Below the pieces are notes generated by a model. It did no database searches, was not told the origin of the DNA, and saw nothing but the letters and a program-made list of their open reading frames with translations. A stretch of DNA of 64,000 nt, taken from positions 148,514-212,513 of the forward strand of contig DATHJY010000011.1 in NCBI GenBank assembly GCA_035489575.1, written 5' to 3'. Below are positions 42,028 to 59,028 of the stretch, piece after piece. Numbering within the stretch: position 1 is the stretch's first letter; each line of letters starts with the position of its first letter. Source of the stretch: Verrucomicrobiia bacterium (GTDB taxonomy: Bacteria; Patescibacteriota; Saccharimonadia; Saccharimonadales; JAGQNK01). The translations under genes were made by a program, and so were the position numbers.

Positions 42028-43227
42028 ATGACCATGCAAACTTATGTTGAGGGTGGCCAGGAAGTACTCGAACACTTTACTGCGCCCGCCGATGAAATCA
42101 AGGCGCCAGATACCGAATCGCCCGAGGAGCAATCAGCCGAAGAAGTAGGCTCGCTGACAGGCGACGAAGCTACCATGTCCTATGACGGACTGGCGTCGGC
42201 CACCACCCCAGAAGCTCCAGCCACGGACGACGCTGACATGAAAGCACGGATTGCCGCTCGCCGCGAAAGACGCCACCGTCGTATGCAAACAGGCCATCGC
42301 CAAGGTGGGGCCGATGCCCTAGGCGCATTCCTCAACGAAATCGGTACCGTCTCCCTCCTGACCGCAAATGATGAAAAGGAGCTGGCTCAAACCATAGAAG
42401 CCGGGCGTAAGGCCGAAAAACGGACAAACATGGCCCAAAAAGAGGGCCGCCCACCAGAAGACAAAGACCTAGCCACTATGACCGACGGTGCAGATGCAAA
42501 AAAACGTTTCATGGTGGCCAACCTGCGGCTGGTGGTTAGCATTGCCAAAAAATACCCCTTGCCGGCCAGCATGGAGTTACTGGATCTTATCCAAGAGGGT
42601 ATCCTCGGACTGGACCGTGCCGTGGACAAGTTTGACTGGCGCAAAGGGTTTAAGTTCTCTACCTATGCCACTTGGTGGATTCGCCAGGCAGTGGGCCGGG
42701 CACTTGACCAAAAAGGTAGCCTCGTCCGCATTCGTGGCGAGGCAGGCCCCAACCTCCGGCGGGCTCTCAGGGAAGGCGGCGAGGAAGCCCTAGATGGTGA
42801 ACTTCTGAGAGTCTACCGCATATCCAGCCCTTTTTCGCTGAATAGGCCGAGCGATCCGAATGAGAAAAAGCTAGAGTTTGGCGATATGCTTGCCTCGGAC
42901 GACAGCACCCCAGAAGACGTCGTGGTGCACGGCACCGGACTGTACCGTTCCATCGAAGAGACAAGCCATAAGATGACCGACGAACAACGTCAAGCTGTAG
43001 AAATGCGTTATATGGGGGACGACGAACCGCCCACCTTCGCCGAGATAGGCAAGGAACTGGGTGGCATCAGCGCAGAAGAGGCCAGAAAACTGACCGCCGC
43101 AGGCGTAGATGTATTGCGTGAACCTCTGGAAGTGCTCACCGAGTGGGCAAAGGCAGAAGCCCGGAAGAGAGAGCGCACCCAAGCACACAAGCGTAAGCGT
43201 GATGTACAAGCAGGCCAAGAATCTTAG
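42028..43227 (+). CDS. sigma-70 family RNA polymerase sigma factor, paralog 1
   Basis: Regions 1.2 and 2: FLNEIGTVSLLTANDEKELA, ANLRLVVSIAKKY, LLDLIQEGILGLDRAVDKFDWRKGFKFSTYATWWIRQAVGRAL. Region 4 is divergent. Confidence 0.85.
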   Translation: MTMQTYVEGGQEVLEHFTAPADEIKAPDTESPEEQSAEEVGSLTGDEATMSYDGLASATTPEAPATDDADMKARIAARRERRHRRMQTGHRQGGADALGAFLNEIGTVSLLTANDEKELAQTIEAGRKAEKRTNMAQKEGRPPEDKDLATMTDGADAKKRFMVANLRLVVSIAKKYPLPASMELLDLIQEGILGLDRAVDKFDWRKGFKFSTYATWWIRQAVGRALDQKGSLVRIRGEAGPNLRRALREGGEEALDGELLRVYRISSPFSLNRPSDPNEKKLEFGDMLASDDSTPEDVVVHGTGLYRSIEETSHKMTDEQRQAVEMRYMGDDEPPTFAEIGKELGGISAEEARKLTAAGVDVLREPLEVLTEWAKAEARKRERTQAHKRKRDVQAGQES

Positions 43228-43304
43228 CCTGTGCATAGAATTTCTCGCATTGCGGACTGGCCAGCCTCCGGGGATACGTGCGACAGCATGCCGAAGATAC
43301 TTAA

Positions 43305-43333
43305 TTGCAAAACTATACCACTTTTTAGATACT
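43305..43333 (+). promoter_or_regulatory. promoter TTGCAA-17-GATACT, 6 nt before ATG
   Basis: -35 at 43305-10 and -10 at 43328-33, with ATG at 43340. Confidence 0.45.
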
Positions 43334-43339
43334 AGCCTA

Positions 43340-44434
43340 ATGGAACTGCAAGCATGCGCAAAAACCGAACCGCTGGAATTCGCAGCCACAGAGGACACCG
43401 TTGAAGAAACGGTAGGTGAAATTGTCAGCGACGAAGCGCCCCTAGCACATAATGGGCTTGCACAAACCGTAATCCACCGCCAAATAGACACACCAGACGA
43501 CCGCGAGGCCGAGCGGGCCAGTCGCCAAGAAGCCGCTCGCCAAAGGCGGCAACACCGTCTGCGCAGCCCACGCAGGACGGGCCAAGACTCTATGAGCTGG
43601 TACCTAAGCGAGATTAGCGTGGTCCCACTGCTGACCAAGAAGAAAGAGATCGAACTAGCAAAAGCCATCGAAACGGGCCGTACAGCAACCGAGCTGATCG
43701 ACCAAGGACGTCGCTCTCGGAAACTTCACCAGACCGCGCAAGCAGGACAAGAAGCCAAGGATATCTTTATACGATCCAACCTGCGCCTGGTTGTCAGCGT
43801 TGCTAAAAAATACCGAGTACCACCGAGTATGGAATTACTAGATTTGATCCAAGAAGGCAATCTGGGGCTGGAGCATGCAGTTGATAAATTTGAGTGGCGC
43901 AAAGGATTCAAGTTCTCCACCTATGCTACCTGGTGGATCAAACAAGCAATCGGACGGGCGCTTGACCAAAAAGCCAACCTGATACGCCTGAAGGGCACTC
44001 TGCCAGGAGAACTACGCGGGGCGTTGGCAGCTCAGACACAAGGGTATGATGACACTACGGGCGAACAGCTCGAGGGTGAACTGGGCCTGGCCTATCGGGC
44101 CGCCACCCCCGCCTCTCTTAGCAATGGCAACGAAGATGAACCCGGGCTGGACAACCTGCTACCTTCGCCGCTCAAGGGACCCGAAGAGACCCTGATTGAC
44201 AACGCCGACAGAGCAACGCAGTATCAGTCCATCGAAGAGGCCGCTCACGCCATGAATCCTACACAACTAAGCGCAGTTAAACTGCGATATCTTGGGCCCG
44301 AAAAGCTCAGCTACCGAGCCGTTGGCGAGCAGTTAGGCGTGTCGCCCGAAGGAGCCAGACGCAATGTCATGAAAGGCCTGAAGATCATTCGTCAGGCACT
44401 AAAAGACCAAATCCAGGAGCCTGAGACTATTTAG
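43340..44434 (+). CDS. sigma-70 family sigma factor, paralog 2
   Basis: Start MELQACAKTE is chosen by homology to the paralog N-termini (MTMQTY, MTLQIY). SNLRLVVSVAKKY...STYATWWIKQAIGRAL. Confidence 0.85.
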   Translation: MELQACAKTEPLEFAATEDTVEETVGEIVSDEAPLAHNGLAQTVIHRQIDTPDDREAERASRQEAARQRRQHRLRSPRRTGQDSMSWYLSEISVVPLLTKKKEIELAKAIETGRTATELIDQGRRSRKLHQTAQAGQEAKDIFIRSNLRLVVSVAKKYRVPPSMELLDLIQEGNLGLEHAVDKFEWRKGFKFSTYATWWIKQAIGRALDQKANLIRLKGTLPGELRGALAAQTQGYDDTTGEQLEGELGLAYRAATPASLSNGNEDEPGLDNLLPSPLKGPEETLIDNADRATQYQSIEEAAHAMNPTQLSAVKLRYLGPEKLSYRAVGEQLGVSPEGARRNVMKGLKIIRQALKDQIQEPETI

Positions 44435-44460
44435 TCATAACGGCTAACATCTCATATACT
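44432..44460 (+). promoter_or_regulatory. promoter TAGTCA-17-TATACT, 6 nt before ATG
   Basis: -10 at 44455-60 with ATG at 44467. The -35 overlaps the paralog-2 stop codon. Confidence 0.4.
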
Positions 44461-44466
44461 TCTTTC

Positions 44467-45525
44467 ATGACACTGCAAATTTATGGCGAAGCTGCTAATT
44501 CCGGACTATCCCCTGAAGGTGAACCAGCAGGCTCACTGGCGGTAGAGGAATCCACGTTTGTCTATGAAGCCGCGCAAAGCGAACGGCTCCGGTCCGTCCG
44601 TGAAAGGCGGCACCTCCGTCTAGGCGGCTCCCGACCAGGGACGACAGATGCATTGAGCCAGTACCTATACGAAGTAGGAAGGTACGAACTCCTCACCAAA
44701 GAGGACGAGATACAGTTTTCTCAACAAATAGAAGCTGGCCGGGACGCCCTGCAACAAATCGAAAATGGCCAGGATGCCGTCGCCCATCGCCAAGCCGTAC
44801 GCCAGGGTCAAGATGCTCGTACCCAGTTCGTGCAAGGTAACCTGCGCCTAGTAGTCAGCATTGCCCTGAAGTATCCGATACCGCCCTCCATGGAACTCTT
44901 GGACCTCATCCAAGAGGGTAATATTGGGTTAGGGTACGCAATTGATAAGTTCGATTGGCAGTATGGGCTTAAATTTTCTACCTATGCCACGTTTGCGATC
45001 CGGCACGCCATTAGTCGTGGCATGGATCGCGCGGCAAACGTCGTACGTTTACCATCCGGCCTGCCAGCGCAGCTCCGAGAAGCCCTCCGGAATCAGACCA
45101 TGTGCCAGGGAGACCAGTCAGGCGACGACCTGCAGGGCGAAATGGGCAAGGCCTACCGAGCAGTCACTCCAACATCTCTAAATATGCCACTAGGCGAAGG
45201 GGACGACTCCGGCGAACTAGGCCAGATTATTCCGTCAGAAGGCCCCGGCACCGAAGAGCTGGCCGCCGCCAAGGTTCTTCAGCATGAAGTCCGCAAGCAC
45301 CTCGATAACGCCAGCCTCTCCCCCAAGCAAAAGTTAGCCATGCAACTGCGCTTTTTGGACCCGGATGACCCCGAGCCAACCTTTCAGGCTATCGGACAGC
45401 GTATGGGAGGCGTCACTGGCGAGGCCGCTAGAATGACCCTCGACCGCGCACTGGCCAGCTTTCAGCGCTATCTACGCAGCAATAATCTAGATGATAACCT
45501 ACTGGACAACAGAGGTGAGTTGTAG
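44467..45525 (+). CDS. sigma-70 family sigma factor, paralog 3 (most divergent)
   Basis: GNLRLVVSIALKY...LLDLIQEGNIGLGYAIDKFDWQYGLKFSTYATFAIRHAISRGM. Confidence 0.8.
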   Translation: MTLQIYGEAANSGLSPEGEPAGSLAVEESTFVYEAAQSERLRSVRERRHLRLGGSRPGTTDALSQYLYEVGRYELLTKEDEIQFSQQIEAGRDALQQIENGQDAVAHRQAVRQGQDARTQFVQGNLRLVVSIALKYPIPPSMELLDLIQEGNIGLGYAIDKFDWQYGLKFSTYATFAIRHAISRGMDRAANVVRLPSGLPAQLREALRNQTMCQGDQSGDDLQGEMGKAYRAVTPTSLNMPLGEGDDSGELGQIIPSEGPGTEELAAAKVLQHEVRKHLDNASLSPKQKLAMQLRFLDPDDPEPTFQAIGQRMGGVTGEAARMTLDRALASFQRYLRSNNLDDNLLDNRGEL

Positions 45526-45690
45526 TATAGTTGGTCCGTTACGCACTACAAACAAGGAGCACAGTAAAATAGGAATTTATTCATATTTTACGAGCATCCG
45601 CAGTTTGTATCGGTCCCGAAGGGACAGATACTAAAACGTAGGAGAACAGTCCAAGCTTCAATGGCACTGTTCGCAAAAGGAGAACTACTT

Positions 45691-46119
45691 ATGGCAAAAG
45701 CCATCAAAGCAAATCTAAAAATGAAAATTCGCGGCGGACAAGCCAGCGCAGCCCCACCCGTGGGTAGCACACTGGGTCAGTACGGCGTGAACATGATGGA
45801 TTTCATCAATCCCTTCAACGAAGGTACCAAAGACCGTCAGGGCCAAGACCTGACCGTCCATATTACTATTTTCGAAGACCGCACTATGGCCTGGCGCGTG
45901 GTCGGCACCCCAACCGACGATCTGATCCGCAAGGCATTAGGTGTCCAGAAAGGCTCTGGCCGACCCAACACCGAGAAGCTACCCAAGAAGCTGAGCGACG
46001 CTCAGCTAACCGAGATCGCCGAGACCAAAGCCGGCGACATGAACACCGACGATATCCCAGCCGTCAAAAAGATGGTAGCCGGCACTGCCCGCAGCATGGG
46101 CGTAGAAGTCGAAGGCTAG
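45691..46119 (+). CDS. rplK: 50S ribosomal protein L11
   Basis: MAKAIKANLKMKIRGGQASAAPPVGSTLGQYGVNMMDF. RBS AAAGGAG. Track ORF starts upstream at 45661. Confidence 0.92.
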   Translation: MAKAIKANLKMKIRGGQASAAPPVGSTLGQYGVNMMDFINPFNEGTKDRQGQDLTVHITIFEDRTMAWRVVGTPTDDLIRKALGVQKGSGRPNTEKLPKKLSDAQLTEIAETKAGDMNTDDIPAVKKMVAGTARSMGVEVEG

Positions 46120-46121
46120 AT

Positions 46122-46358
46122 ATGTCACCAGAAGCCGAACCAATGATCCATCCGCTAGACACAATGGAAGCAGCCGCTCAGGCTCTCCAGGACGCCCGAG
46201 ATCAGTTGAAAGAAGCAGGCGGCAACTTTAACAGAGCGCTACAGGCCGCACACCAAGTCTACGGCAGCCTAGATCCAGAGGACCGGCAAAATTTAGGACC
46301 AATAGCAGATGCAGTCATGCGTCAGAATAACAATGGCTATAGTCCCAACGACCGCTAA
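46122..46358 (+). CDS. hypothetical helical protein inserted between rplK and rplA
   Basis: 78-aa ORF that starts 2 nt after the rplK stop. GAAGG lies 8 nt upstream. Ala/Gln-rich. Confidence 0.4.
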   Translation: MSPEAEPMIHPLDTMEAAAQALQDARDQLKEAGGNFNRALQAAHQVYGSLDPEDRQNLGPIADAVMRQNNNGYSPNDR

Positions 46359-46417
46359 CGTTTAACTAACTTGTGGGAGGCAGATATGCCGCTGGCACCA
46401 CGAAAGGATAAGAATTT

Positions 46418-47437
46418 ATGGCAAAGAAAGCAGAACTACTAGAACAAGCCAAAGCACTTGGCTTGGAAGTAACCGATAAAAACACCATTGCAGAGCTAGA
46501 GACCGCAATCAAAGGCGCAGACACACCCCAAGAAGAGGTTGTTATCGCCGGCGAAGCAGCAGAAGCCGCAGTTGCACCCACAGAAGACGAAGAAAAAGCC
46601 ACCACCAAGGCTGGTAAGCGTAGTGTCAAAGGCGTCAAAGAAGCCGAAGAAAAGCAGGCGAAGCTAGAACGCCAACAGCATGCTGCCGAGGAAAAGGCAG
46701 AGGCCGACAAACCAAAGGTTCAGCAAAAGCCCGCTCGCAGCAAGCTCGAGCGCCGCAGCAAAACCTACCGCAAATTGGCCGAGCAGATCGAAAAAGGCAA
46801 AGCCTACAGCCTGACCGAAGGTCTGGATCTGGCTACAAAGACCAATCCTGTCAAGTTTGACGCAACCGTAGAGGTCCACATCCGCCTGGGCGTAGATCCT
46901 CGCCAGGCCGACCAGAACATTCGCGACACTCTGGTCCTGCCAGCCGGAACCGGCAAAGCCGTTCGCGTAGCCGTATACGCTGACGTTGACGATGTAGCCA
47001 AGGCCAAAAAAGCCGGCGCCGATATCGCCGCAGGCGACGAGTTTTTACAGCAGCTAGACAAGGGCACTATCGACTTTGACGTCCTGGTAGCCACCCCAGC
47101 TATGATGCCCAAGCTTGGTAAGTACGCTCGTATACTTGGTCCAAAAGGTCTCATGCCCAACCCAAAGAGTGGCACCGTTGCCGCTGACGTAGCCAAGGCC
47201 GTCACCGAGGCCAAAGCTGGCCGGGTAGAATACCGCGTAGACAGCACTGGTATTGTGCATGTTGGTATTGGCAAGGTAAGCTTTGGGGCTGACAAGCTGA
47301 CGCAGAATGCCCGCGCTTTGCTGACCAGCCTAAAGAACAACAAACCCACCAGCCTAAAGGGCACCTACATAAAGTCACTGTACGTGACCACCAGCATGGG
47401 TCCCAGCATCACCATCGAAACAACCGAAGCCAACTAG
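46418..47437 (+). CDS. rplA: 50S ribosomal protein L1 with ~105-aa N-terminal extension
   Basis: The canonical L1 core starts near [18 protein letters not shown]...[20 protein letters not shown]. No in-frame start lies near the core. Confidence 0.9.
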
Positions 47438-47459
47438 GCAGTAAAAGTTGTAGTAAAAA

Positions 47460-47487
47460 CAGCTTCGCGCAACGCGGAGCTGTTTTT
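47460..47487 (+). terminator. intrinsic terminator after rplA
   Basis: CAGCTTCGCG/CGCGGAGCTG 10-bp stem with one G-U pair and loop CAA, then TTTTT. Confidence 0.8.
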
Positions 47488-47505
47488 CTGTAGAATAGAT
47501 AGGTA

Positions 47506-48261
47506 ATGGTGGTAATTGGAATAACCGGGCCTATCGGTCACGGTAAAACAACATTTGCAGATGCCCTGGCCCAACACGAGCCCTCTTTTTGCCACCTAGA
47601 AGCCAACATGGCCATCATCGAAGTGGCCAACGCCCTGCACGAGGTGCTACCCGCAGATATAAGCCCTCACCAGATCGATTCCATAAATGCCTGGCTGCAG
47701 TCACTGCCGGATATTCTGCAACAAACAGTAGGTGTTACGTGCTCTTTTGAGCAGATCGCCCTCACGGCCCAAGCCGTGCAGAACCAGCCGGCAGAGTATC
47801 AAAAGCTCATGTTGCACATCGAGAACCTGCAGCGCAATCCAGTCCTCGCCCAACAGGACATAACCGCCGACAACAAAACAAGTTACCGCCCATTTTTGCA
47901 GTGGCTCGGCGGCTATCTGGTGGCAAAAGTAGACCCGGGCATTTGGTTCAACGAAGTTGTGAGGCGCCTCCAGCACAGCCAGCAAGCAGGCTGCAAGGTA
48001 TGTATTATTGGTGGCGTACGCTATCCTTCGGATGCCAAAATACTACGCACAGCCAATGCCAAGATCATAGAGCTGTACCGCCCCGGGCACCTCCAGACCG
48101 ACACTCTCGATCCCACCGAACGCGAACGCGACAGTATCCAGGCTGACAGCACGGTTATTAGCAACGGCAGTGTCGAAGATTTGCAACACTGTGCCGCACA
48201 GATATTGCAGGACATTCAGACTGACAAGCTCCAGCAAACCTATCAGACAAAGGCGACATAA
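47506..48261 (+). CDS. P-loop NTPase, dNMP-kinase-like
   Basis: Walker A IGITGPIGHGKTTFA. GGVRYPSDAKILR resembles the dNMP kinase GVRfpnE block. Confidence 0.5.
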   Translation: MVVIGITGPIGHGKTTFADALAQHEPSFCHLEANMAIIEVANALHEVLPADISPHQIDSINAWLQSLPDILQQTVGVTCSFEQIALTAQAVQNQPAEYQKLMLHIENLQRNPVLAQQDITADNKTSYRPFLQWLGGYLVAKVDPGIWFNEVVRRLQHSQQAGCKVCIIGGVRYPSDAKILRTANAKIIELYRPGHLQTDTLDPTERERDSIQADSTVISNGSVEDLQHCAAQILQDIQTDKLQQTYQTKAT

Positions 48262-48262
48262 C

Positions 48263-48706
48263 ATGGCACACTACCGGACCCGCAAAGAAACCATCAGTTA
48301 CAAAAAGTATCTGCATGAGCGCAAAAAACAGGGCAAGGACAGTGACTGTATTTTTTGCGAGGTCGTGCCGGGCTTTCCGCAGTTTGTGAAAGAACTCAAA
48401 CACTTCAAAATCATTCGCAATATTTTTATGTACTCCAGTTGGGACGGCCAGGCCGTTCGTGAACACTTGCTACTCGTACCTCACAAGCACGTGAACTCAC
48501 TGGCACACGTTTCTAAGGCTGCTGCTCTCGAGTACTTTGACACCATCACTGCTTACGAAGAAAAAGGCTACCACGTGTACGCCCGGGGATCTGGCACCTC
48601 CACCAAGACCATCATTCATCAGCATACTCATCTTATAAAGCCGGCCGGCAAGCATCATAAGCTGGTCATCTTCCTGGCCAAGCCGTACATGCGTATTGTC
48701 AGATAA
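48263..48706 (+). CDS. HIT-family protein
   Basis: ATG 48263, 1 nt after the upstream stop codon. Histidine triad HQHTHLI and CIFC motif. Confidence 0.7.
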   Translation: MAHYRTRKETISYKKYLHERKKQGKDSDCIFCEVVPGFPQFVKELKHFKIIRNIFMYSSWDGQAVREHLLLVPHKHVNSLAHVSKAAALEYFDTITAYEEKGYHVYARGSGTSTKTIIHQHTHLIKPAGKHHKLVIFLAKPYMRIVR

Positions 48707-48794
48707 GCCCCACCTGTAGTTGTATTATTGTACTAACGCTTGCATCACAGTTTTGACACCCCGTACAATACATACACATTAGAGGGAGTAATCA

Positions 48795-49496
48795 GTGGAC
48801 CTTGAAGGTACAGGGGTTTATAGCAACAGCCAAATAAAAGCCGCCATTTCAGACGGTCATATTGTATTTCACCCTTATATAGAGGACCACATTGCCGGCA
48901 GCAGCGTGGACGTGACCTTGGGCCACTGGTTTTATCGTACCGAGCGCAATGGCCACAGCGGCTTCTACAATCCGTTCGACGAAAGCGACGTCCGGCGTTA
49001 CTTTGACGGACCGTTCCATGCCGACACCCACGATTTTTGGGCGCAAGCCAATGGTCGCAAGCCCTTTGGTGGCATCCCGCCAGACCATCCCATTATTATT
49101 CTGCGGCCGGGCGAACGTATCCTGGCCCACACCCATGAATTCATCGGCATCAAAGCCCCTGGCACCAGCACCATGCAAGCCCGCAGCACGTGGGGCCGCA
49201 ATGGCGTGGCCGTCTGTCTGGACGCCGGGTGGGGGGACCCTGGCTATATCAACCGCTGGACCATGGAAATCTACAACATGAACCAGCACGAGAGCGTTGT
49301 GCTGCCGGTAGGCGAACGCATTGCCCAAATGGTCTTTTACCATACCGGCCCCGTGGACGGAGAATACAAAAACCTCAGCGGCAAATACCAGTCAAATGAC
49401 AGTGAAAACCTAGTAGACATCATTAACAATTGGCGCCCTGAGCAAATGCTGCCGCGAGCTTACAAAGACACCCGCCGCAAACCGAGGGAAGTGTAA
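48795..49496 (+). CDS. dcd: dCTP deaminase/dUTPase-superfamily protein
   Basis: GTG start with GGGAG upstream. SSVDVTLG, the trimeric dUTPase-fold motif GWGDPGY and the ERIAQMVF block. Confidence 0.75.
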   Translation: MDLEGTGVYSNSQIKAAISDGHIVFHPYIEDHIAGSSVDVTLGHWFYRTERNGHSGFYNPFDESDVRRYFDGPFHADTHDFWAQANGRKPFGGIPPDHPIIILRPGERILAHTHEFIGIKAPGTSTMQARSTWGRNGVAVCLDAGWGDPGYINRWTMEIYNMNQHESVVLPVGERIAQMVFYHTGPVDGEYKNLSGKYQSNDSENLVDIINNWRPEQMLPRAYKDTRRKPREV

Positions 49497-50311
49497 TGGG
49501 TGCAATTGACCAAGATCCATGGTTTTTGAGTGACAAGCTAGAAGGCAAATACCCCGTTGCATCGCCAGATGAGTTGGCCGATGAATGGCACGCCTACACA
49601 GAACGAGAAACGCACGCACTACAGGGTGTGTTAGGTGCCTACGCCAAACCTGTCGGGGAAGTATGTGCCGTCGCCTCTATCGATTTATGCGAAGTAACGC
49701 GTGACACAGCCGTAAGCCTTGGCGATTTGGTCGGCGAACCACTCGAACGCGGACAGTACTCAGAGGGCACCTGGTATTCTGTCGAAAACATGGGGTTAGA
49801 TTTTGAATACTCAGTCGTACTTGGTGGGCTCCAACACCTCATGAACAACGACCTCGTAGGAGCCATCCCAGGAATTGACGAGGTGAGCCACACCTTGCGT
49901 GGCTGGCGAGAGCAAGGCGTCTATATGGCGGCCAATACATCTACCTTGCCCGGCTGCGAACTTGCTACTATCCGTCATCACCTCGAAAAAGATCTGAAAG
50001 GATGCTTTGACGCCCTTCTTCTACCTCGCAACTACGACGGCAGAGGGAAAATGACCAAGGCGCAGGCTCTGGATGTGCTCGGCCAAGAAGCCGGGATAGA
50101 CATAGGGGCGCTGCCACTGGTACACATTGACGACGCTACCCACCATGTCCAGGGATTTATTGATCACTTCGGGGACCATCCGACAAGCGCATTCCTAATG
50201 CCAGCACACAACTACAACCAAGCACCCGTGGCAGAGATGCGCTGCGAAGATCCGCCTGAGGCATTCGCACGAGCACACGAATTCTTACAAAAACAAGGAG
50301 TACTGCAATGA
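49496..50311 (+). CDS. hypothetical protein, possibly HAD/NT5C-like nucleotidase fold
   Basis: Overlapping start and stop with both neighbours. IDLCEV aligns where DxDxV is expected, and HIDD occurs late in the sequence. Weak. Confidence 0.35.
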   Translation: MGAIDQDPWFLSDKLEGKYPVASPDELADEWHAYTERETHALQGVLGAYAKPVGEVCAVASIDLCEVTRDTAVSLGDLVGEPLERGQYSEGTWYSVENMGLDFEYSVVLGGLQHLMNNDLVGAIPGIDEVSHTLRGWREQGVYMAANTSTLPGCELATIRHHLEKDLKGCFDALLLPRNYDGRGKMTKAQALDVLGQEAGIDIGALPLVHIDDATHHVQGFIDHFGDHPTSAFLMPAHNYNQAPVAEMRCEDPPEAFARAHEFLQKQGVLQ

Positions 50312-52644
50312 GCGAAAAAGGTGTGTTTCTAGTCATCGAGGGCACTGACGGATCAGGCAAGGGTACCCAGTTTAAATTGCTAGAGGAACACTTACGCCAG
50401 CAGGGTCACGACGTGGTGACGTGTGATTTTCCACAGTACGATCAGCCCTCTAGCTTTTTTGTACGCGAATACCTAAACGGCAAGTACGGCACTGCGGACG
50501 AAGTAGGCCCCTATACCGGTTCGCTCTTTTACGCCCTAGACCGCTACCACGCTGCCTCCCAGATCCGGGAAGCTCTGGAAGCCGGCAAGGTAGTGCTAGC
50601 CAACCGCTTTACGGGCAGCAACATGGCCCACCAAGGCACCAAGTTCAACCACGCCGAAGAACGCCGGGGCTATTTTATCTGGTTGGACAACCTCGAGTTC
50701 CAGATGCTGGGCATCCCGCGCCCAGACAAGAGTTTCGTACTCCGGGTGCCAGCCGAGATCGCCCAAAAACTAGTAGACCAAAAAGAGCAGCGCAGCTACA
50801 CCGATAAAAAACGCGATATCCACGAGGCCGACCTAGGCCACCTGCAAAAAGCCGTCCAAGTCTACGATGACCTATGTCAGCTATTTCCCAAGGACTTCCA
50901 GCGGCTGGACTGTGTGCGAGGCGACACACTGCTTTCTATCGACCAAGTTCAAAATATGCTCCGCAAAACTATCCAGCCACTGCTACCAAAACCAGCTGGC
51001 AAGAAATCAGCTGCCACCACGGCAAAAGCCCCCAGTAGTATCAAGAAGCCAGACAACCCGTACGTCAAAAAGACCAGTCATGGCTGGGAAGTGACAGAGG
51101 CCGGCAAGCAGTTCCTAGAAGCAGCCATAACCAACGTAGACGGCGATGTCTATGCCTTCAAAGATAAGCTAAGCACGCTTACGGTGGCAGCAGCCATGGC
51201 CAGACTCAGTCGCCGCGGGGACGACATGCGTGTCACCATGCTGGACGAATTTGCTATGCACGAGGGCAAAGACGAAGGCCTGATCCACCGCGTAATTACC
51301 GCCTATGGGGACGACTCCGTCCAACAGCTAGTGGGCCAACACATCGTGGTAGAGAACGCTAGCAACCTACTGACCAAACAGCTCGAATGGGGACGCTTGG
51401 CGTCCTACCTAGAACAGTCCACCCGCTATATTTACTTTGACCAGAAAGATGCCAAAGGGCAATACAAATACTACACACCAGATCATATAGATGAGCTGAC
51501 CACGGCCAAATACACCGCCACCATGGATAGCATTTTTGACACCTACTCGTCCATGGCCCGCGATCTGACAAATTATTTGCAGATCCACTCATCTACCCCC
51601 AAAGAAGAGCAAGACGGTGCCTGGCGCGGGGCCATCCGGGCTCAAGCCTGCGATGCCATCCGGGCAACGCTGCCCGTAGCCACCAAGTCTACCGTGGGTA
51701 TTTTTGCCAGCGGCCAGGCGCTAGAGATGCTTATCATGCGTCTGCGGGCCAGCGAAAGCAAAGAAGCCCAAGCCGTTGGCGAGCAAGTTCTGCAAGAAGC
51801 CCGCAAAGTTATCCCAACCTTCCTGGAGCGAGCCGACAAGCCCGAACGTGGTGGTGCCACCACCGCCTACCTGTCTGACAACCGCAAAGCCATGAAGTCA
51901 GTGGCCAATCGATACCTACCAGACACCCACAGTAACGGCCACCAAGCCGTTACCCTGCACAGCGTCTGGCCCCGCAAAGAACTAGACCTGGTGCCACACA
52001 TGCTCTACGAATCGACGCAGCTGTCACTAGAAGAAATCACCAAAGAAGTAAACACCTGGCCCATAGACAGAAAGCTCGAAGTATTCAACACCTACATAGG
52101 AGAGCGCCTGAATCGCCGGCACCGTCCGGCCCGGGCATTGGAGCAGGCACACTACACCTGGGATCTGCTGTGTGACTACGGCATTTTCCGTGACCTGCAG
52201 CGCCACCGCATGGTGGACGACCTACAGTGGCAAGCGCTGACCCCCCGATACGGCTACGAAATACCCAAGCTGGTAGAAGACGCCGACCTGACCGAATCGT
52301 TCGAGAAGTGTTTTGACCTGTCTGCCAGGTTGTATTCCACACTCCAGGCCGCCGGCTATCTCTACGAAGCCCAGTATGCCACCTTGTTGGGACACCGCAT
52401 GCGCTGGAAGATTACCTATAATGCCCGCGAAGCATTTCACCTGCACGAACTGCGTACCAGCCCCCAGGGACACCCCGGCTACCGCAAACTCGTGCTCGAA
52501 ATGCACCAGAAACTGGCCGAGGTTCACCCCATGCTGGCCGAAGCCATGAAGTTTGTGAACCAAGGGGAAGACCCCGAGCTAACCCGTCTGGCAGCCGAAC
52601 GCTACACCCAGTTCAAGCTGCAGCAGATGCCGGAAAATATCTAA
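50308..52644 (+). CDS. fusion protein: thymidylate kinase plus large FAD-dependent thymidylate synthase (ThyX-like)
   Basis: N-terminal FLVIEGTDGSGKGTQ...DRYHAASQ...NMAHQG is Tmk-like. C-terminal ~560 aa carry FRDLQRHRM and NAREAFHLHELRTSPQGHPGYR, which are ThyX-type blocks. Confidence 0.75.
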   Translation: MSEKGVFLVIEGTDGSGKGTQFKLLEEHLRQQGHDVVTCDFPQYDQPSSFFVREYLNGKYGTADEVGPYTGSLFYALDRYHAASQIREALEAGKVVLANRFTGSNMAHQGTKFNHAEERRGYFIWLDNLEFQMLGIPRPDKSFVLRVPAEIAQKLVDQKEQRSYTDKKRDIHEADLGHLQKAVQVYDDLCQLFPKDFQRLDCVRGDTLLSIDQVQNMLRKTIQPLLPKPAGKKSAATTAKAPSSIKKPDNPYVKKTSHGWEVTEAGKQFLEAAITNVDGDVYAFKDKLSTLTVAAAMARLSRRGDDMRVTMLDEFAMHEGKDEGLIHRVITAYGDDSVQQLVGQHIVVENASNLLTKQLEWGRLASYLEQSTRYIYFDQKDAKGQYKYYTPDHIDELTTAKYTATMDSIFDTYSSMARDLTNYLQIHSSTPKEEQDGAWRGAIRAQACDAIRATLPVATKSTVGIFASGQALEMLIMRLRASESKEAQAVGEQVLQEARKVIPTFLERADKPERGGATTAYLSDNRKAMKSVANRYLPDTHSNGHQAVTLHSVWPRKELDLVPHMLYESTQLSLEEITKEVNTWPIDRKLEVFNTYIGERLNRRHRPARALEQAHYTWDLLCDYGIFRDLQRHRMVDDLQWQALTPRYGYEIPKLVEDADLTESFEKCFDLSARLYSTLQAAGYLYEAQYATLLGHRMRWKITYNAREAFHLHELRTSPQGHPGYRKLVLEMHQKLAEVHPMLAEAMKFVNQGEDPELTRLAAERYTQFKLQQMPENI

Positions 52645-52657
52645 TTATTTAACCTAA

Positions 52658-52686
52658 TTTACAAAAAAGCATAAATACAGTATAAA
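52658..52686 (+). promoter_or_regulatory. promoter TTTACA-17-TATAAA
   Basis: Upstream of GC-rich ORF 52756. A GTAGTCAC-cg-GTGACTAC hairpin lies in the 5' UTR. Confidence 0.45.
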
Positions 52687-52755
52687 TATACTCTTGTACG
52701 GTAGTCACCGTGACTACGAGTTTCATCGCCCTTTCCCAGCAAGGATGGTTTACCC

Positions 52756-53487
52756 ATGTCCCGAAAGCACCTACTGGCTGTAGTCCTCGGAGTGTTCGTG
52801 GGAGTGTTCGCGCTCCTCGCAGGGGCTGGACTCGCCGTCGTACTCCTGCCGTCCGACCCTGAGCCGTCGATCACCATCGAGTCCATCAACGGCCAGAGCA
52901 CGGCCAACGAAGACGCCAGACTGGACAAGCTGCAGGAGCACTGCTCCGGCGACTTAGGCCCTGACGGCATCGCCAGCAAGCTGGACACCGCACCCCTGAC
53001 GCTCAACGACGAGCTGGTCTACATGGTCTACGGCGACGAAGTCACCGCGCTCAACCCACAGGCACTCGTGCAGTGCGACTACGAGGCCCCCGTGGGTGAC
53101 AGCTACGTCTCGGTGTCGATCGACGCCACGTCGTTCGACGACGGCCAGGCGTACTGGGACAAAGTCATCAGCAACACCTGCGAGGGTGGCTGTGACGAGA
53201 ACGAGCCCAGCGACCACCCCAACAACGTGGACGACTCGTTCGTGGTGGATGGCAACCACGCCACCTTCATCAACGTCAAGCGTGAGCGAACGGACTTCGA
53301 CGGTCCGCAGTCACCCGTCGGCACGCTCATGGTGGTCAGCACCATCCAGGGAGACACCGAGTGCTCGGCCGTCTTCCGCACGGGAGACATCCAGCCCGAG
53401 AGCTTCACGCGGGTCACGGACACGCTCCGCGCGTTTGCAGATCAGGCCTGCGAGCTCGCCGCACAGTCGTCCACGGACGAGACCTGA
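52756..53487 (+). CDS. GC-rich membrane-anchored or secreted acidic protein, hypothetical
   Basis: N-terminal TM LLAVVLGVFVGVFALLAGAGLAVVLL. Strongly GC3-biased codons. GGCCGGGTGG/CCACCCGGCC hairpin downstream. Confidence 0.55.
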   Translation: MSRKHLLAVVLGVFVGVFALLAGAGLAVVLLPSDPEPSITIESINGQSTANEDARLDKLQEHCSGDLGPDGIASKLDTAPLTLNDELVYMVYGDEVTALNPQALVQCDYEAPVGDSYVSVSIDATSFDDGQAYWDKVISNTCEGGCDENEPSDHPNNVDDSFVVDGNHATFINVKRERTDFDGPQSPVGTLMVVSTIQGDTECSAVFRTGDIQPESFTRVTDTLRAFADQACELAAQSSTDET

Positions 53488-53678
53488 AGTTGGCTTGGCC
53501 GGGTGGGTGGACACTGTCCATATACCAAACCACCCGGCCATTCGGCCCTTATTCTGCCAAGAAACTACCGTACACTTTTCCAGAGCGCTGCATATATTTG
53601 CAGCTCTGTGGCAAAGTTATTCAAATAAATAGATACGACCTTCGTCTATGCCCGTTTGCAGCGCGGCCAACAGGGCAG

Positions 53679-53969
53679 TCATGCCCACGGGGCGCTCACG
53701 CGGGATTGCCGGTAGGTCAATCCGCCGCCGGGCCTGGCGCCGGTCCACTGACCTGGACGATTCAACTCGTTGTTGTTGCGCTCGCATAGCTTCTTCACAA
53801 CCGCCTCATCAGAGAAAAAGGCGCTGTCCATGTCTTCCAGCGACTCATAACCCATAATCTCCCACATGGGTCGCCTGTCGTTTGACGCAACCACGGGAAT
53901 GGTGGGTGCTACCTCAATACCCGGCGGTACAAGCAGTTCACACGTAGGGTCTCTTTCGATAAGGCTCAT
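53679..53969 (-). CDS. hypothetical protein
   Basis: 96-aa ORF with no motif. The 3' part is in GC-rich sequence and its extent is uncertain. Confidence 0.3.
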   Translation of the reverse strand: MSLIERDPTCELLVPPGIEVAPTIPVVASNDRRPMWEIMGYESLEDMDSAFFSDEAVVKKLCERNNNELNRPGQWTGARPGGGLTYRQSRVSAPWA

Positions 53970-54141
53970 AGTATTTTCTTTCTCTTATATCTTACTGTTT
54001 TTATGGGTAATGTGACAACTGGAGGATGGGGCTTGGAGTGATTGGTGGTGTCCTAAGACGGACAATGGCCGTGTGCGCCACTAGCCTGGGACGATCCCAA
54101 ACTCCCACCAACCGGCGTACTTCTACATGCAAACGTCCCGA

Positions 54142-54423
54142 CTAGGCCACCGCCAGGCGAGCTCTCTTGGGTGGCACGTACCGAATGCGCGTCCAGCCCG
54201 CTCGCGGATGGCCCTTGCGGTACTTGCGCAGCCTCAAGCGATCGACCTGCTTCATGGCTCTCAGGGCAACAGCGATTTGGTCAAGAGTGACACCCTTGAC
54301 GTCTATGTCATTGCGAAAGTTGGCGAGGTCTCCGTAAACCACCGAGCCTTTTCTCTTCATGAAGGTTTCAATAGCACGTTGGATGTACGCCTGCATTGCA
54401 TTGTCTTGTCGGGCCAAGGCCAT
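54142..54423 (-). CDS. hypothetical basic protein
   Basis: 93-aa ORF with a strong RBS (CTGGAGGA directly before the ATG). Basic C-terminus. Confidence 0.4.
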   Translation of the reverse strand: MALARQDNAMQAYIQRAIETFMKRKGSVVYGDLANFRNDIDVKGVTLDQIAVALRAMKQVDRLRLRKYRKGHPRAGWTRIRYVPPKRARLAVA

Positions 54424-54771
54424 TCCTCCAGTTGTCGTGTTCTAACTTACAAAGCCAGAACTGGTGCTATCCCCCCTAAGGGATCTATGGAAGTCAGTGC
54501 TCCCACCCAGTGAACTTGGTAGTGTAGACAAGTCCACTGGGCGGATTCGCTGACTGTTGCGAAAGTGTGGGTTAAAAAAACCGGATCCAGCCTTATGGTT
54601 GGATCCGGTAGAGTTTTGCTTTGTTGCTGTGTATTTCTATGCGGCGTTACCAGTTCCAACCATTTTGTTCCAAATGAGCACATAGCCAAACACTTGGCGT
54701 AGATTGTGCTTCATAGTGGTGGTTGAACTTTGGTAGGTCACGGTAAAAACTTTACGCTATAGCCCGATCAG

Positions 54772-54800
54772 TTGTCAAGCCTGGGTGCTTATGGTATGAT
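54772..54800 (+). promoter_or_regulatory. promoter TTGTCA-17-TGgTATGAT
   Basis: -35 at 54772-77 and extended -10 at 54792-800. ATG of the leader ORF is 10 nt downstream. Confidence 0.55.
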
Positions 54801-54810
54801 CCACCCCATT

Positions 54811-54891
54811 ATGCGTTTTAACCATGCTAACAGTTTGCTCCTCCTCAGCCTTAACGGGCTGTGCTTCAGCAGGGTTGAAGCCAAGGGTTAG
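54811..54891 (+). CDS. putative Leu-responsive leader peptide (26 aa)
   Basis: MRFNHANSLLLLSLNGLCFSRVEAKG. Four consecutive Leu codons at 54835-46 and two more downstream. Embedded in alternative hairpins. Confidence 0.5.
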   Translation: MRFNHANSLLLLSLNGLCFSRVEAKG

Positions 54892-54920
54892 CGCCCTCTT
54901 GCACAGTCCAAAACCAAAAA

Positions 54921-54944
54921 AGGCTTCAACCAGAAGTCTTTTTT
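54921..54944 (+). terminator. attenuator terminator
   Basis: AGGCTTC-aacca-GAAGTCT followed by TTTTT. The 5' arm can alternatively pair with TTGAAGCC at 54875-82. Confidence 0.6.
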
Positions 54945-54963
54945 AACTTTTTAGGAGAAAATT

Positions 54964-55200
54964 ATGGCCGCCGAAGGATTAACAGTAGAGCAGGGCGTAT
55001 TAAGAGACCCGAACATGGCAGATGCAGAGCACACTCGACGCGTTGCCACGCTCTCGGGGTACCCCAGCATGCAACAAAGAATAGCAGCAGCCTCTATGGA
55101 TAAGGTTGATACAGTGCCGGTAGACGAGGTAACGGATATTCCTGATCTTGCCCGGCGGATGGCGATTGCTAGTACTGTGACGGTCGATCACGTCCTGTAG
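54964..55200 (+). CDS. hypothetical small acidic protein
   Basis: 78-aa ORF with RBS TAGGAGAAA. Confidence 0.45.
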   Translation: MAAEGLTVEQGVLRDPNMADAEHTRRVATLSGYPSMQQRIAAASMDKVDTVPVDEVTDIPDLARRMAIASTVTVDHVL

Positions 55201-55205
55201 GGTCG

Positions 55206-55234
55206 TTGACAAAAAAACAGAAGGAGAGTAACTT
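55206..55234 (+). promoter_or_regulatory. promoter TTGACA-17-TAACTT, 7 nt before ATG
   Basis: -35 at 55206-11 and -10 at 55229-34, with leader ATG at 55242. Confidence 0.4.
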
Positions 55235-55241
55235 AAGCCTC

Positions 55242-55289
55242 ATGACACAGAGACAGCTCGTGATTGAGGTGGTGATTCTCCCCGGCTAG
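55242..55289 (+). CDS. putative branched-chain amino acid leader peptide (15 aa)
   Basis: MTQRQLVIEVVILPG. Seven of eight central codons are Leu, Val or Ile. Confidence 0.5.
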   Translation: MTQRQLVIEVVILPG

Positions 55290-55328
55290 CGGGTCTCTTG
55301 TGCATGCCTAAAGATTTTGACAAGAAAC

Positions 55329-55356
55329 ATCCCGCGAAACCCGCGGGATTTTTATT
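55329..55356 (+). terminator. attenuator terminator
   Basis: ATCCCGCG-aaacc-CGCGGGAT followed by TTTTTATT. GCGGG at 55289-93 can pair with CCCGC at 55331-35 as an antiterminator. Confidence 0.65.
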
Positions 55357-55376
55357 ACAAAGATAAGGAGTAAGAC

Positions 55377-55574
55377 ATGAGCGCAGAAACAGAACCAGGA
55401 ATACCAAACTATATGAATGGTGAGGTACTTGCACTGTCCGATACAGACACCCCGGCAACCGAACCGGAAATTGACACGGACACTCCCGTTCAACCGCACG
55501 CTGACGCCATCGATGACATTCGCAACGAGCGAAATTCCAACTACGGCTATGGCGGGGAGAACTTCGGTGTCTAA
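55377..55574 (+). CDS. hypothetical small acidic protein
   Basis: 65-aa ORF with a strong RBS (AAGGAG). Overlaps the ridA start. Confidence 0.4.
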   Translation: MSAETEPGIPNYMNGEVLALSDTDTPATEPEIDTDTPVQPHADAIDDIRNERNSNYGYGGENFGV

Positions 55575-55938
55575 GGTATTTGGCCCCTACAGCCCCATCA
55601 GACAGGCCGGAAGCCTGTACTACGTGTCTGGGCAAGTAGGCGTGGACCCAGACACCAACCAGTGCGGCCACACCATAGAGGAACAAACCGGACAGGTTAT
55701 GGCCAACATGCAGACAGTTCTAGCATCCGCAGGACTTGATATAAGTGACGTAGTCAAATGCACCATCTACCTCAAGGATATGAGCGACTTCGCAAAAATG
55801 AACGACGTCTACGCTGGCTTTTTTGAGCCGCCATTCCCAGCCCGCGGTACCGTAGCCGTAAAAGACCTGCCGCACGTCGGGGGCGAGGCAAATATTCTGG
55901 TAGAGATCGAAGCCATTGCTTATAAGGAATCAGCGTGA
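55549..55938 (+). CDS. ridA: RidA/YjgF-family reactive intermediate deaminase
   Basis: FGPYSPIRQAGSLYYVSGQVGVDP...PARGTVAVKDLP...VEIEAIA. Start is ATG 55549, or GTG 55567 which has GGGGAGA upstream. Confidence 0.8.
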   Translation: MAGRTSVSKVFGPYSPIRQAGSLYYVSGQVGVDPDTNQCGHTIEEQTGQVMANMQTVLASAGLDISDVVKCTIYLKDMSDFAKMNDVYAGFFEPPFPARGTVAVKDLPHVGGEANILVEIEAIAYKESA

Positions 55939-57650
55939 GCGAACTTGATGGTGCCCAAGCGCTGGTTAGTACCCTAGAGAAACATGGGGTCGAATATATC
56001 TTTGGCTATTCCGGCGGTGCCGCTATCCCTATTTTTGATGCCTTGATCACCACCAAGACCAAGATCAAACTGATCCTGACCCGTCACGAGCAAGGCGCTG
56101 CCCACATGGCTGACGGCTATGCTCGGGCCAGCGGCAAACCAGGCATCGTCCTAGTCACCAGCGGGCCAGGTGCCGGTAACACCGTCACTGGGCTCATGAC
56201 CGCCCAGATGGACAGCGTGCCTATTATCGTTATTTCGGGCCAGCAGATCAGATCCATGCTGGGCATGGATGCCTTCCAAGAGGCCGACATCTTTAATATG
56301 ACCATGCCAGTGGTCAAGCACAGCTACCTGATCCGCGAGACCAACGATATCCCCAGTATTGTGGACGAAGCCTTCCATATCGCTACCACTGGCCGGCCCG
56401 GCCCGGTGCTGATAGATATCCCTAAAGATGTCAGCAGTGGCGACTTTAGCGGGGAATTCGACAAGCCCATCGATTTGCCGGCCTACAAACAACCCGCCAC
56501 TATCGACCATAAGAAAATTCAGGCCATAGCCGACGCCTGGGCCAAGGCCAAAAATCCAGTCATTCTGGCGGGGCATGGCGTGTTGATTTCTGGTGCTCAC
56601 AAACAATTGACCAAATTAGCAGAGCAAATGGACACGCCCGTTACCACCACACTGCTAGGCAAGGGAGCCTTCCCTGAAACCCACCAGCTGTCGCTGGGCA
56701 TGCTGGGTATGCACGGCACCGCTTACGCCAACAAAGCCATGGTAGAGTGCGACTTTTTGCTAAACATTGGCTCGCGGTTCGACGACCGTATTGTTGGTGC
56801 GCCCGCTGCCTTCTGCAAAGACGCCTTTATTGCCCATGTCGATATTGACGCCAGCGAGATTGGCAAGATGATCCACCCCAACGCGGCCGTAGTGGCCGAC
56901 GCCAAGGCTGGCATAGAAGCACTCAGCAAAACTGTCAAGGCCCAAAAGCATAATGACTGGAACAAACACCTAGATGAATACCGCCAGAAATACCCCCTAA
57001 CCTACAGCGACAAAAACGGTCTGACCATGCAAAAGGTAATAGACGAAGTCTACAAATTTACCAAAGGCAAGGCTATCGCTGTAACAGACGTAGGACAGCA
57101 TCAGATGTGGGCCGCCCAATTCTACAAAACCGATGACCCGCACATGTGGCTCAGCTCTGGCGGTGCCGGCACCATGGGTTACGGCTTTCCTGGCGCCATT
57201 GGCGCCCAATTTGCTCGCCCCAACGACGATGTTATAGCTTTTGTGGGCGACGGTGGTTTTCAAATGACACTGTTTGAACTAGCTACCGCTTGCATCCATA
57301 AGTTGCCCCTCAAAATTTTTGTCCTGAACAATCACTATCTGGGCATGGTGCGTCAGTGGCAAGAGCTGTTCTTTGACAACCGCGAGAGCGGTGTAGATCT
57401 AGAGGGCAACCCCGACTTTGCCGCTCTGGCCGAGGCCTACGGTGCCAAAGGCGTCAACATAACGTCAGCAGATCAAATTGATGCCAAGCTCAAAGAGGCC
57501 TGGGCAGTCACCGACCGGCCAGTGGTTATCAACGTAGAAGTCATCAAGACTGATAACGTCTACCCCATGGTGCCTGCCGGTGCCCCACTAGAGAGCATGA
57601 TCGTTACCGCACCAACCACAAAACTAGCCAAACCCACAGGGAGTACTTAA
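55935..57650 (+). CDS. ilvB: acetolactate synthase large subunit
   Basis: GTGA overlap with the ridA stop. TPP motif GGAGTMGYGFPGAIGAQ...GDGGFQM...NN. Confidence 0.92.
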   Translation: MSELDGAQALVSTLEKHGVEYIFGYSGGAAIPIFDALITTKTKIKLILTRHEQGAAHMADGYARASGKPGIVLVTSGPGAGNTVTGLMTAQMDSVPIIVISGQQIRSMLGMDAFQEADIFNMTMPVVKHSYLIRETNDIPSIVDEAFHIATTGRPGPVLIDIPKDVSSGDFSGEFDKPIDLPAYKQPATIDHKKIQAIADAWAKAKNPVILAGHGVLISGAHKQLTKLAEQMDTPVTTTLLGKGAFPETHQLSLGMLGMHGTAYANKAMVECDFLLNIGSRFDDRIVGAPAAFCKDAFIAHVDIDASEIGKMIHPNAAVVADAKAGIEALSKTVKAQKHNDWNKHLDEYRQKYPLTYSDKNGLTMQKVIDEVYKFTKGKAIAVTDVGQHQMWAAQFYKTDDPHMWLSSGGAGTMGYGFPGAIGAQFARPNDDVIAFVGDGGFQMTLFELATACIHKLPLKIFVLNNHYLGMVRQWQELFFDNRESGVDLEGNPDFAALAEAYGAKGVNITSADQIDAKLKEAWAVTDRPVVINVEVIKTDNVYPMVPAGAPLESMIVTAPTTKLAKPTGST

Positions 57651-57656
57651 GATCTC

Positions 57657-57815
57657 ATGCAATGCAATTCACAAGATTCAAGACAGATGATTTTTGAGCG
57701 AAATCAACAAAATCGAGTAAGGGGTAATTGTCATTACACCGCACGAGATCTTGTTAGATTGCAGCCAAAAAGGGCTGTTTTGAAATTATGCAATTGCATT
57801 GTAGGAGGTCTTTGA
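57657..57815 (+). CDS. possible 52-aa basic Cys-containing ORF filling the ilvB-ilvN spacer
   Basis: ATG 57657 with GGGAG 13 nt upstream. TGA at 57813-15 overlaps the ilvN ATG (TGATG). Below the ORF-track cutoff. Confidence 0.25.
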   Translation: MQCNSQDSRQMIFERNQQNRVRGNCHYTARDLVRLQPKRAVLKLCNCIVGGL

Positions 57816-58770: not shown

Positions 58771-58795
58771 ATTACGCAGCAGAACGAGGGTGGGT

Positions 58796-59022: not shown

Positions 59023-59028
59023 GATACG

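Follow-up and report, generated by a model that had tools for sequence, protein, structure and literature searches.

A 64,000-nucleotide stretch of DNA (positions 148,514 to 212,513 of contig DATHJY010000011.1, assembly GCA_035489575.1), referred to here as the window, carries at 47506-52644 five closely packed, co-directional open reading frames (ORFs) on the plus strand, the last of which encodes a 778-amino acid (aa) protein. This protein joins an N-terminal thymidylate kinase (Tmk) domain to a region that sequence profiles and a structural model identify as a double-length FAD-dependent thymidylate synthase (ThyX), and it is a real and ordinary example of an architecture that is known but uncharacterised. 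It is read from the sequences, with high confidence, as the housekeeping, thymidylate-forming bifunctional enzyme of Saccharibacteria (TM7), which would work together with the dCTP deaminase-family protein (DCD) encoded by gene 3 of the cluster, and the fusion is probably functional. An earlier note, made from the sequence alone, had described the five genes as a dTTP-synthesis operon ending in a Tmk-ThyX fusion. All five were found where it had placed them, and the peptides FLVIEGTDGSGKGTQ, QRHRM and FHLHELRTSPQGHPGYR that it quoted are present in the fusion ORF. Its assignment of the first ~210 aa to thymidylate kinase and of the remainder to a double-length ThyX was borne out by domain parsing, in which Thymidylate_kin and Thy1 both exceeded their Pfam thresholds, and by structure prediction of the ThyX part. 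Genes 1 and 2 are separated by 1 nucleotide (nt), genes 3 and 4 overlap by 1 nt, and genes 4 and 5 share a 4-nt ATGA overlap. The G+C content of the cluster (0.52-0.55) equals that of its flanks. The features of the cluster are as follows.

47506-48261, plus strand: gene 1, phage/T4-type dNMP kinase-like P-loop protein, 251 aa (PF21448, phrog_139)
48263-48706, plus strand: gene 2, putative divergent HIT-family protein, 147 aa counted from the ATG (PDB 3l7x, 6iq1)
48795-49496, plus strand: gene 3, predicted dCTP deaminase-family protein (DCD) with dUTPase fold, 233 aa (PF22769)
49496-50311, plus strand: gene 4, 271-aa protein of a small family restricted to Saccharibacteria (HAD-like motifs in alignment)
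50308-52644, plus strand: gene 5, Tmk-ThyX fusion, 778 aa (PF02223 and PF02511)
50308-50940, plus strand: fusion, thymidylate kinase domain of Mycobacterium tuberculosis type, aa 1-211 (PF02223, NF005923, 4unn)
50941-51072, plus strand: fusion, Lys/Ala/Pro-rich low-complexity linker, aa ~212-255 (unconserved, length varies)
51073-51927, plus strand: fusion, predicted ThyX-fold domain 1 (N-half), aa ~256-540 (3gwc profile match, AlphaFold2, Foldseek)
51928-52644, plus strand: fusion, predicted ThyX-fold domain 2 (C-half), aa ~541-778 plus stop (1kq4/4gtf profile match)

Domain structure and catalytic residues of the fusion protein

The thymidylate kinase domain was recognised by Pfam PF02223 (Thymidylate_kin; aa 10-200, 70.2 bits against a cut-off of 27, 2.4e-19) and by NF005923, a model of mycobacterial-type dTMP kinases (8e-38), and the best solved relative of aa 6-190 was the M. 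tuberculosis TMK 4unn (2e-19). Across 121 fusions the P-loop G12-T-D14-G-S-G17-K18, D78-R79-Y80, R100 and the lid residues R162/K168/R169 are invariant or at least 95 % conserved, and F41-P42 and S104 are likewise invariant or nearly so. The P-loop, DRY and lid residues are shared with the M. tuberculosis-type thymidylate kinases (1g3u/4unn; NF005923), whereas here the kinase occupies the N-terminus of a 778-aa chain and does not reach the NCBIfam equivalog cut-off. Judged by these matches the domain is divergent yet clearly homologous to thymidylate kinases. The stretch that follows (aa 205-262) is unconserved, rich in Lys, Ala and Pro and 47 to 65 residues long among the 121 fusions, and it would behave as a flexible tether. 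In some lineages it is a second, far more divergent Tmk flavour (GKYIVIEGPEGVGKTTQ) that is fused with this double ThyX (P0122, P0123, P0134, P0135, P0146 and others), and a few fused proteins have degenerate P-loops (P0127 'LLDGPDDLYV', P0167 'GTDGSDEG'), which hints at kinase-dead variants. In a neighbour-joining tree of the ThyX module, which is too crude to count fusion origins, the fused forms fall at two places with both Tmk flavours mixed.

The remainder of the protein contains two stretches matched by Pfam PF02511 (Thy1; 126 bits against a cut-off of 24.8). Searches of the PDB with phmmer and with a shallow family profile matched Tmk structures only and no ThyX, so this ThyX lineage is divergent. 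When aa 240-778 were compared with 1.84 billion representative sequences, 3461 relatives were found (678 at E ≤ 1e-30, 2166 at E ≤ 1e-10), comprising both stand-alone proteins of 510-560 aa and proteins extended at the N-terminus by a Tmk-like segment of ~240-280 aa. The query ThyX part was aligned with diverse stand-alone members (75 sequences, 30-55 % identity; alignment A3), and in the resulting profile the N-half matches M. tuberculosis ThyX 3gwc (1.6e-13) and the C-half Thermotoga maritima ThyX 1kq4/4gtf (3e-6). An AlphaFold2 model of the ThyX part built on the 75-sequence alignment had a pLDDT of 95.3 and a pTM of 0.91 (an earlier run on 17 close homologues, with a pLDDT of 58.6, was discarded), and the top 50 Foldseek matches in the PDB were all ThyX, with a probability of 1.0 and TM-scores of 0.62-0.73 normalised to the target. 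The two halves align with each other collinearly over 177 columns in hhalign with the 75-sequence alignment (P = 9e-4); no similarity between them was found by BLASTP, or by hhalign on a Saccharibacteria-only alignment (Neff 1.8). On account of the profile matches of each half, the AlphaFold2 model, the Foldseek result and the alignment of the halves, the C-terminal ~520 aa are assigned as two diverged ThyX domains in tandem, a 'long-form' ThyX.

Long-form ThyX is abundant, with at least 8000 clusters at E ≤ 1e-20 for one stand-alone query, and no solved long-form structure was found in the PDB searches. Stand-alone long forms are annotated 'FAD-dependent thymidylate synthase' in Acidimicrobiales/Microthrixaceae, Eisenbacteria, a Norongarragalinales archaeon, other Patescibacteria and others, and the ThyX of Chlamydia trachomatis is reportedly an active long form of ~530 aa. 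These stand-alone proteins (~510-560 aa) share with the fusion the same two-domain module at 30-56 % identity and the same invariant residues, but they lack the kinase domain, tmk being a separate gene. In comparison with canonical ThyX (T. maritima TM0449, M. tuberculosis Rv2754c and PBCV-1 A674R; homotetramers of ~220-250 aa), each half has the same fold and the halves combined provide the same catalytic set (RHR, Glu86, Ser88, Arg90, Tyr91, Arg147, Arg165 and Arg174), whereas here there are two domains per chain, the signature is divided between them, the module is fused to Tmk, and extra motifs such as YGDDSVQQL and NRRH(R/K)PxRAxE are conserved.

The distribution of catalytic residues was followed by transferring T. 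maritima numbering through HMMER alignments and counting residues in the 121 fusions and in the 75-member family. The N-half has invariant Arg80 (R363), Glu86 (E369), Ser88 (S371), Arg90 (R373), Tyr91 (Y374) and Arg147 (R452), and has lost Arg78 (W361, variable in the family), His79 (G362), His53 (D335, an invariant Asp) and Glu58 (Gln or Ala), with no fixed Arg174 (Arg, His, Asn or Lys at position 478). The C-half has invariant Glu58 (E612), Arg78-His79-Arg80 (R632-H633-R634), Asn163 (N705), Arg165 (R707) and Arg174 (R716); an invariant Tyr690 stands in place of Arg147, and the equivalent of the Ser88 loop is unconserved in the broad family. In the canonical ThyX tetramer three monomers meet at each of the four identical sites; Ser88 and Tyr91 are strictly conserved residues on which activity critically depends, and Arg90 is also conserved (PMC11940539). 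Because the two halves retain complementary residues and the canonical site draws on three subunits, a dimer of the tandem domains could mimic the tetramer, with one type of site complete and two composite sites instead of four, a proposal whose chances are put at about even.

It is unlikely, by comparison, that one half is a dead scaffold in a protein with four sites, all of one kind, or with another stoichiometry. Such a scaffold could be seen in the N-half, which is without Arg78, His79 and His53 (contacts to FAD and phosphate), or in the C-half, whose Ser88 loop is not conserved across the broad family, but each half keeps exactly what the other has lost, invariantly in 75 sequences at 30-55 % identity. 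This complementarity is as expected if both halves build the same site, and construction of a site from several subunits is already the rule in the canonical enzyme (PMC11940539).

Distribution, genomic context and alternative readings

The identical 778-aa protein is present on four independent assemblies (ENA, JGI, Logan), and relatives are encoded by at least 556 GTDB species, almost all of them Saccharibacteria. The best 80 of these at least 556 species loci, taken as one genome per species, were used as the context sample; they are full-length matches, nearly all from metagenome-assembled genomes (MAGs) of Saccharibacteria/Saccharimonadia (TM7). In 80 of 80 a single unbroken ORF spans query residues ≤12 to ≥765, which removes the worry, raised in the earlier note, that a frameshift had joined two genes. 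Among the matches listed, 120 clusters have lengths of 765-806 aa and 70-95 % identity, and each contains both Tmk and Thy1; clusters at 90 % identity number in the hundreds. The proteins are named 'FAD-dependent thymidylate synthase [Candidatus Saccharibacteria/Saccharimonadales]' by NCBI and 'thymidylate kinase/thymidylate synthase ThyX' by JGI. The earlier note had named wide annotation of the fusion architecture as a refuting condition, and the architecture did prove widely annotated: it is no one-off but the usual arrangement in hundreds of Saccharibacteria species, with automatic annotations already attached. A protein identical to the 271-aa product of gene 4 appears in NCBI (VK694_05620, on a 267,912-bp contig) under the label 'Verrucomicrobiae bacterium', although all relatives and the whole gene content are Saccharibacteria-like, and the names Limnocylindria, Nevskiaceae or Dormibacteraeota are attached to other MAGs that carry the fusion; these labels look like taxonomic mislabels or mis-binning.

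Most of the 80 loci have the gene order L11, L1, a variable segment, DCD and the fusion, with L10 and L12 downstream of the fusion in relatives. DCD lies directly upstream of the fusion in 77 of the 80, its stop codon a median of ~11 nt before the fusion start, and L1 and L11 are present at 72 and 68 of the loci, respectively. The accessory genes are far more variable, with the dNMP kinase beside the core in 31/80, the HIT gene in 14/80 and the 271-aa family in 3/80. Because of this adjacency set against the variable accessories, DCD and the Tmk-double ThyX fusion are taken as the core, a conserved functional unit inside a split rplKA/rplJL region, and the grouping of all five genes into one module in the earlier note did not hold. 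The window is odd only in the placement of the 271-aa gene between DCD and the fusion, and the P0122 fusion, with the divergent Tmk flavour, has the same order of DCD, fusion, L10 and L12.

The closest stand-alone long ThyX (P0125, 56 % identity, on a 511-kb contig) is followed by a deoxyribosyltransferase-like gene (Nuc_deoxyrib_tr) and a separate 224-aa tmk, beyond which lie NUDIX, DCD, SHMT and HhH-GPD genes, with FolD slightly farther. Separate thyX and tmk neighbours in one lineage and their fusion in another form a textbook Rosetta-stone relationship, which ties the module to thymidylate and one-carbon metabolism and supports a route from dCTP through dUMP and dTMP to dTDP. At the P0125 locus (L086 7704-9315) the nucleoside 2-deoxyribosyltransferase-like and NUDIX genes stand between or next to thyX, tmk and dcd; a NUDIX gene is also present in the window, at 10631-11176, ~37 kb from the cluster.

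Gene 3 matches PF22769 (DCD) at 4e-33 (115 bits against 27) and falls narrowly under the cut-off of the TIGR02274 equivalog (86.9 against 92.8 bits). Its best solved relative is 4xjc (5e-13), presumably the bifunctional enzyme of Bacillus halodurans, followed by the dUMP-forming enzymes of M. tuberculosis and Methanocaldococcus jannaschii. The match to DCD and bifunctional DCD-dUTPase structures (4xjc, 2qxx, 1ogh; 5e-13 to 1e-6) extends over the catalytic C-terminal half, whereas an insertion of ~50 residues (aa ~45-95) sets gene 3 apart from all solved DCD/DCD-DUT structures and splits the HMMER match into aa 10-59 and 95-201. The protein is predicted to be a dCTP deaminase-family enzyme, mono- or bifunctional and forming dUTP or dUMP, which fits the dTTP route that the earlier note had proposed for it.

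Two of the three remaining genes also matched the families that the earlier note had named. Gene 1 belongs with T4/T5-type dNMP kinases by PF21448 (DNMK; aa 114-227, 2e-10, 41.1 bits against 27.1) and phrog_139 (aa 1-243, 4e-23). Gene 2 had no Pfam match at E ≤ 0.01, and is classed as a divergent HIT member by its matches to 3l7x (5.9e-5) and 6iq1 (5.8e-4), in which H119-Q-H-T-H-L-I aligns with the histidine triad; a CIFC motif is also present. Gene 4 had nothing credible in Pfam, NCBIfam, PHROGs or PADLOC, and its family, ~62 clusters that are all named 'hypothetical' and are mostly from Saccharibacteria, had no PDB match at E ≤ 10 by profile and no meaningful Pfam match by profile or with single members. 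Motifs alone suggest a HAD-like protein: the family alignment (A4) contains the series S-I-D63-L-C65-E-V, A-N147-T-S-T150, K188 and H-I-D212-D213, of which N-T-S-T, K188 and D212-D213 resemble HAD motifs II, III and IV. D63 is invariant, and HAD motif I, DxD(T/V), fails at its second Asp, the general acid/base, which is replaced by Cys65, conserved at 90 % or more. The proposal of a HAD/NT5C-like protein in the earlier note therefore stands as far as the motif pattern (D-x-C, NTST, K, DD) and found no support in profile searches. Genes 1, 2 and 4, which vary between lineages and stand outside the core, probably encode salvage or house-cleaning accessories.

Several points weigh against reading the fusion as a thymidylate-forming enzyme with composite sites. 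Both parts score below their NCBIfam equivalog cut-offs, the Tmk domain with 68.5 against 83.25 for TIGR00041 and 129.9 against 193 for NF005923, and the ThyX part with 59.6 against 87.9 for TIGR02170 (thyX). The signature RHR-x7-S-x-R-Y is complete in neither half alone, the N-half having W-G-R...S-T-R-Y and the C-half R-H-R, and it is full only with the halves combined. In Saccharibacteria only, the R-H-R of the C-half is followed 10 residues later by T-P-R-Y (T645-P-R647-Y648), and the C-half of these bacteria may form a second, weaker type of ThyX site (T645-x-R647-Y648). Canonical positions are swapped throughout the family (His53 and Gln75 to Asp, Asn169 to His and, in the C-half, Arg147 to Tyr), so details of cofactor or substrate may differ. 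The literature searched held no biochemical data for any family member, and no paper on the fusion or on the split ThyX active site. The check for thyA, dut and other tmk copies that the earlier note had suggested was made in part: in Pfam scans of the other window ORFs of at least 180 aa no thyA, dut, second tmk, RNR, folA or glyA was found, the absence of thyA and of a second tmk covering only 64 kb of the genome.

The family-wide swaps and the missed thyX cut-off, together with the membership of gene 1 in a phage dNMP kinase family, would also be compatible with a long-form ThyX that makes another C5-modified pyrimidine nucleotide and that forms a modification module with the dNMP kinase, HIT and HAD-like proteins, an alternative entertained in the earlier note. 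This is very unlikely, as the locus is a housekeeping one that lies within a ribosomal protein cluster in essentially all relatives, with conserved synteny, and the accessory genes are missing from most species; PADLOC was negative. The stand-alone relative clusters with tmk, SHMT and FolD, which are classic partners in thymidylate and one-carbon metabolism, and this points the same way, as does the annotation of the same long-form family as the ThyX of many Actinobacteria and others. Ser88, Arg90 and Tyr91, and RHR and Arg174, which are needed for dUMP methylation, are invariant, and the window ORFs of at least 180 aa include no thyA.

Less credible still is a mobile, phage-derived or anti-phage island that depletes nucleotides by means of a dCTP deaminase, a kinase and a HIT protein. 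Both dCTP deaminases and HIT proteins are known in defence systems, gene 1 matches a PHROG, and weak PADLOC domain matches were obtained for gene 1 (dCTPase, 8e-4) and gene 2 (ThsC-like HIT, 1.7e-3), but these matches are marginal and partial and there is none for DCD. The G+C content is that of the flanks, the cluster showed no integrase, repeats or tRNA, and the idea is largely refuted by synteny, the position between rplA and rplJ being constant across the 80 species. Finally, the reading of the 778-aa ORF as a frameshift or misassembly artefact joining separate tmk and thyX genes, which has only the unusual length in its favour, is refuted by the four assemblies, the 80 intact loci and the hundreds of 765-806-aa clusters.

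Flanking genes and other features of the locus

Upstream of the cluster lie nusG, three sigma-70 genes, rplK and rplA, and rplJ and rplL follow ~10 kb downstream. The ribosomal protein genes that bound the conserved locus, and the small ORF among them, are as follows.

45661-46119, plus strand: rplK, upstream boundary (Pfam Ribosomal_L11 on identical contigs)
46122-46358, plus strand: small ORF between rplK and rplA, 78 aa
46418-47437, plus strand: rplA, upstream boundary (Pfam Ribosomal L1 on identical contigs)
62298-62822, plus strand: rplJ, downstream boundary of the conserved locus
62990-63370, plus strand: rplL, downstream boundary of the conserved locus

The rplK-rplA-rplJ-rplL block, which is usually contiguous, is interrupted here by ~15 kb (45661-63370). 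Besides the cluster, the gap between rplA and rplJ holds a RidA-like gene, the large subunit of acetolactate synthase (55935-57650), ACT small subunits and a threonine dehydratase (59449-60942), and such branched-chain amino acid genes are unexpected for a Saccharibacteria genome. The L1 protein of the window has 339 aa, including a Lys/Glu/Ala-rich N-terminal extension of ~110 aa, and the spacer between rplK and rplA has an unannotated ORF at the same position in two relatives (L002, L004). The gene nusG (41098-41640) is separated from rplK by the tandem trio of sigma-70-family genes (42028-45525, plus strand), whose ORFs are at 42028-43227, 43109-44434 (the true start is probably later) and 44467-45525; the second and third are clear paralogues with similar region 2-4 sequences. 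After the stop codon of the fusion, an AT-rich spacer (52645-52755) contains a perfect 8-bp inverted repeat, GTAGTCAC C GTGACTAC, at ~52702-52718 with no T-tract, which was not called a terminator by the consensus scan. The counts of the promoter and terminator scan were not clearly above shuffled expectation and carry no evidential weight.

Predicted pathway and significance

In the proposed route, the DCD-family enzyme would convert dCTP to dUTP, or straight to dUMP if it is bifunctional, the tandem ThyX would methylate dUMP to dTMP with FAD, NAD(P)H and methylenetetrahydrofolate (CH2-THF), and the tethered Tmk would phosphorylate dTMP to dTDP with ATP. In a homodimer, each composite ThyX site would have a kinase domain close by on a flexible linker, and channelling between ThyX and Tmk may be envisaged. 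A more tentative extension, held a little short of an even chance, is that long-form ThyX is obligately asymmetric, an ancient duplication followed by complementary loss having produced a two-site dimer to which Saccharibacteria have tethered one Tmk per site, with dTMP passing straight to the kinase. Enzymes of successive pathway steps are often fused. The bifunctional DHFR-TS of protozoa and plants, another covalent union of a thymidylate synthase with the enzyme of a neighbouring step of the thymidylate cycle, is the classic example on which proposals of channelling are modelled. The two systems share no homology: DHFR-TS is based on ThyA and its partner DHFR recycles the cofactor, whereas here the synthase is ThyX and the partner kinase consumes the product.

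Saccharibacteria are ultra-small epibiotic bacteria with minimal metabolism, and the DCD gene and the Tmk/double-ThyX fusion are the only evident thymidylate route, a result that aids metabolic reconstruction of the group. The finding is unsurprising in kind, as the architecture is abundant and auto-annotated in public databases. The complementary division of residues between the two halves, if it is as proposed, is a clean natural case in which an oligomeric active site was sub-functionalised after duplication. The fusion has no human counterpart and differs in structure from the ThyX of pathogens, and if the proposed arrangement is true it would be a bifunctional enzyme specific to this lineage and probably essential to it, and might serve as a selective target in TM7 bacteria.

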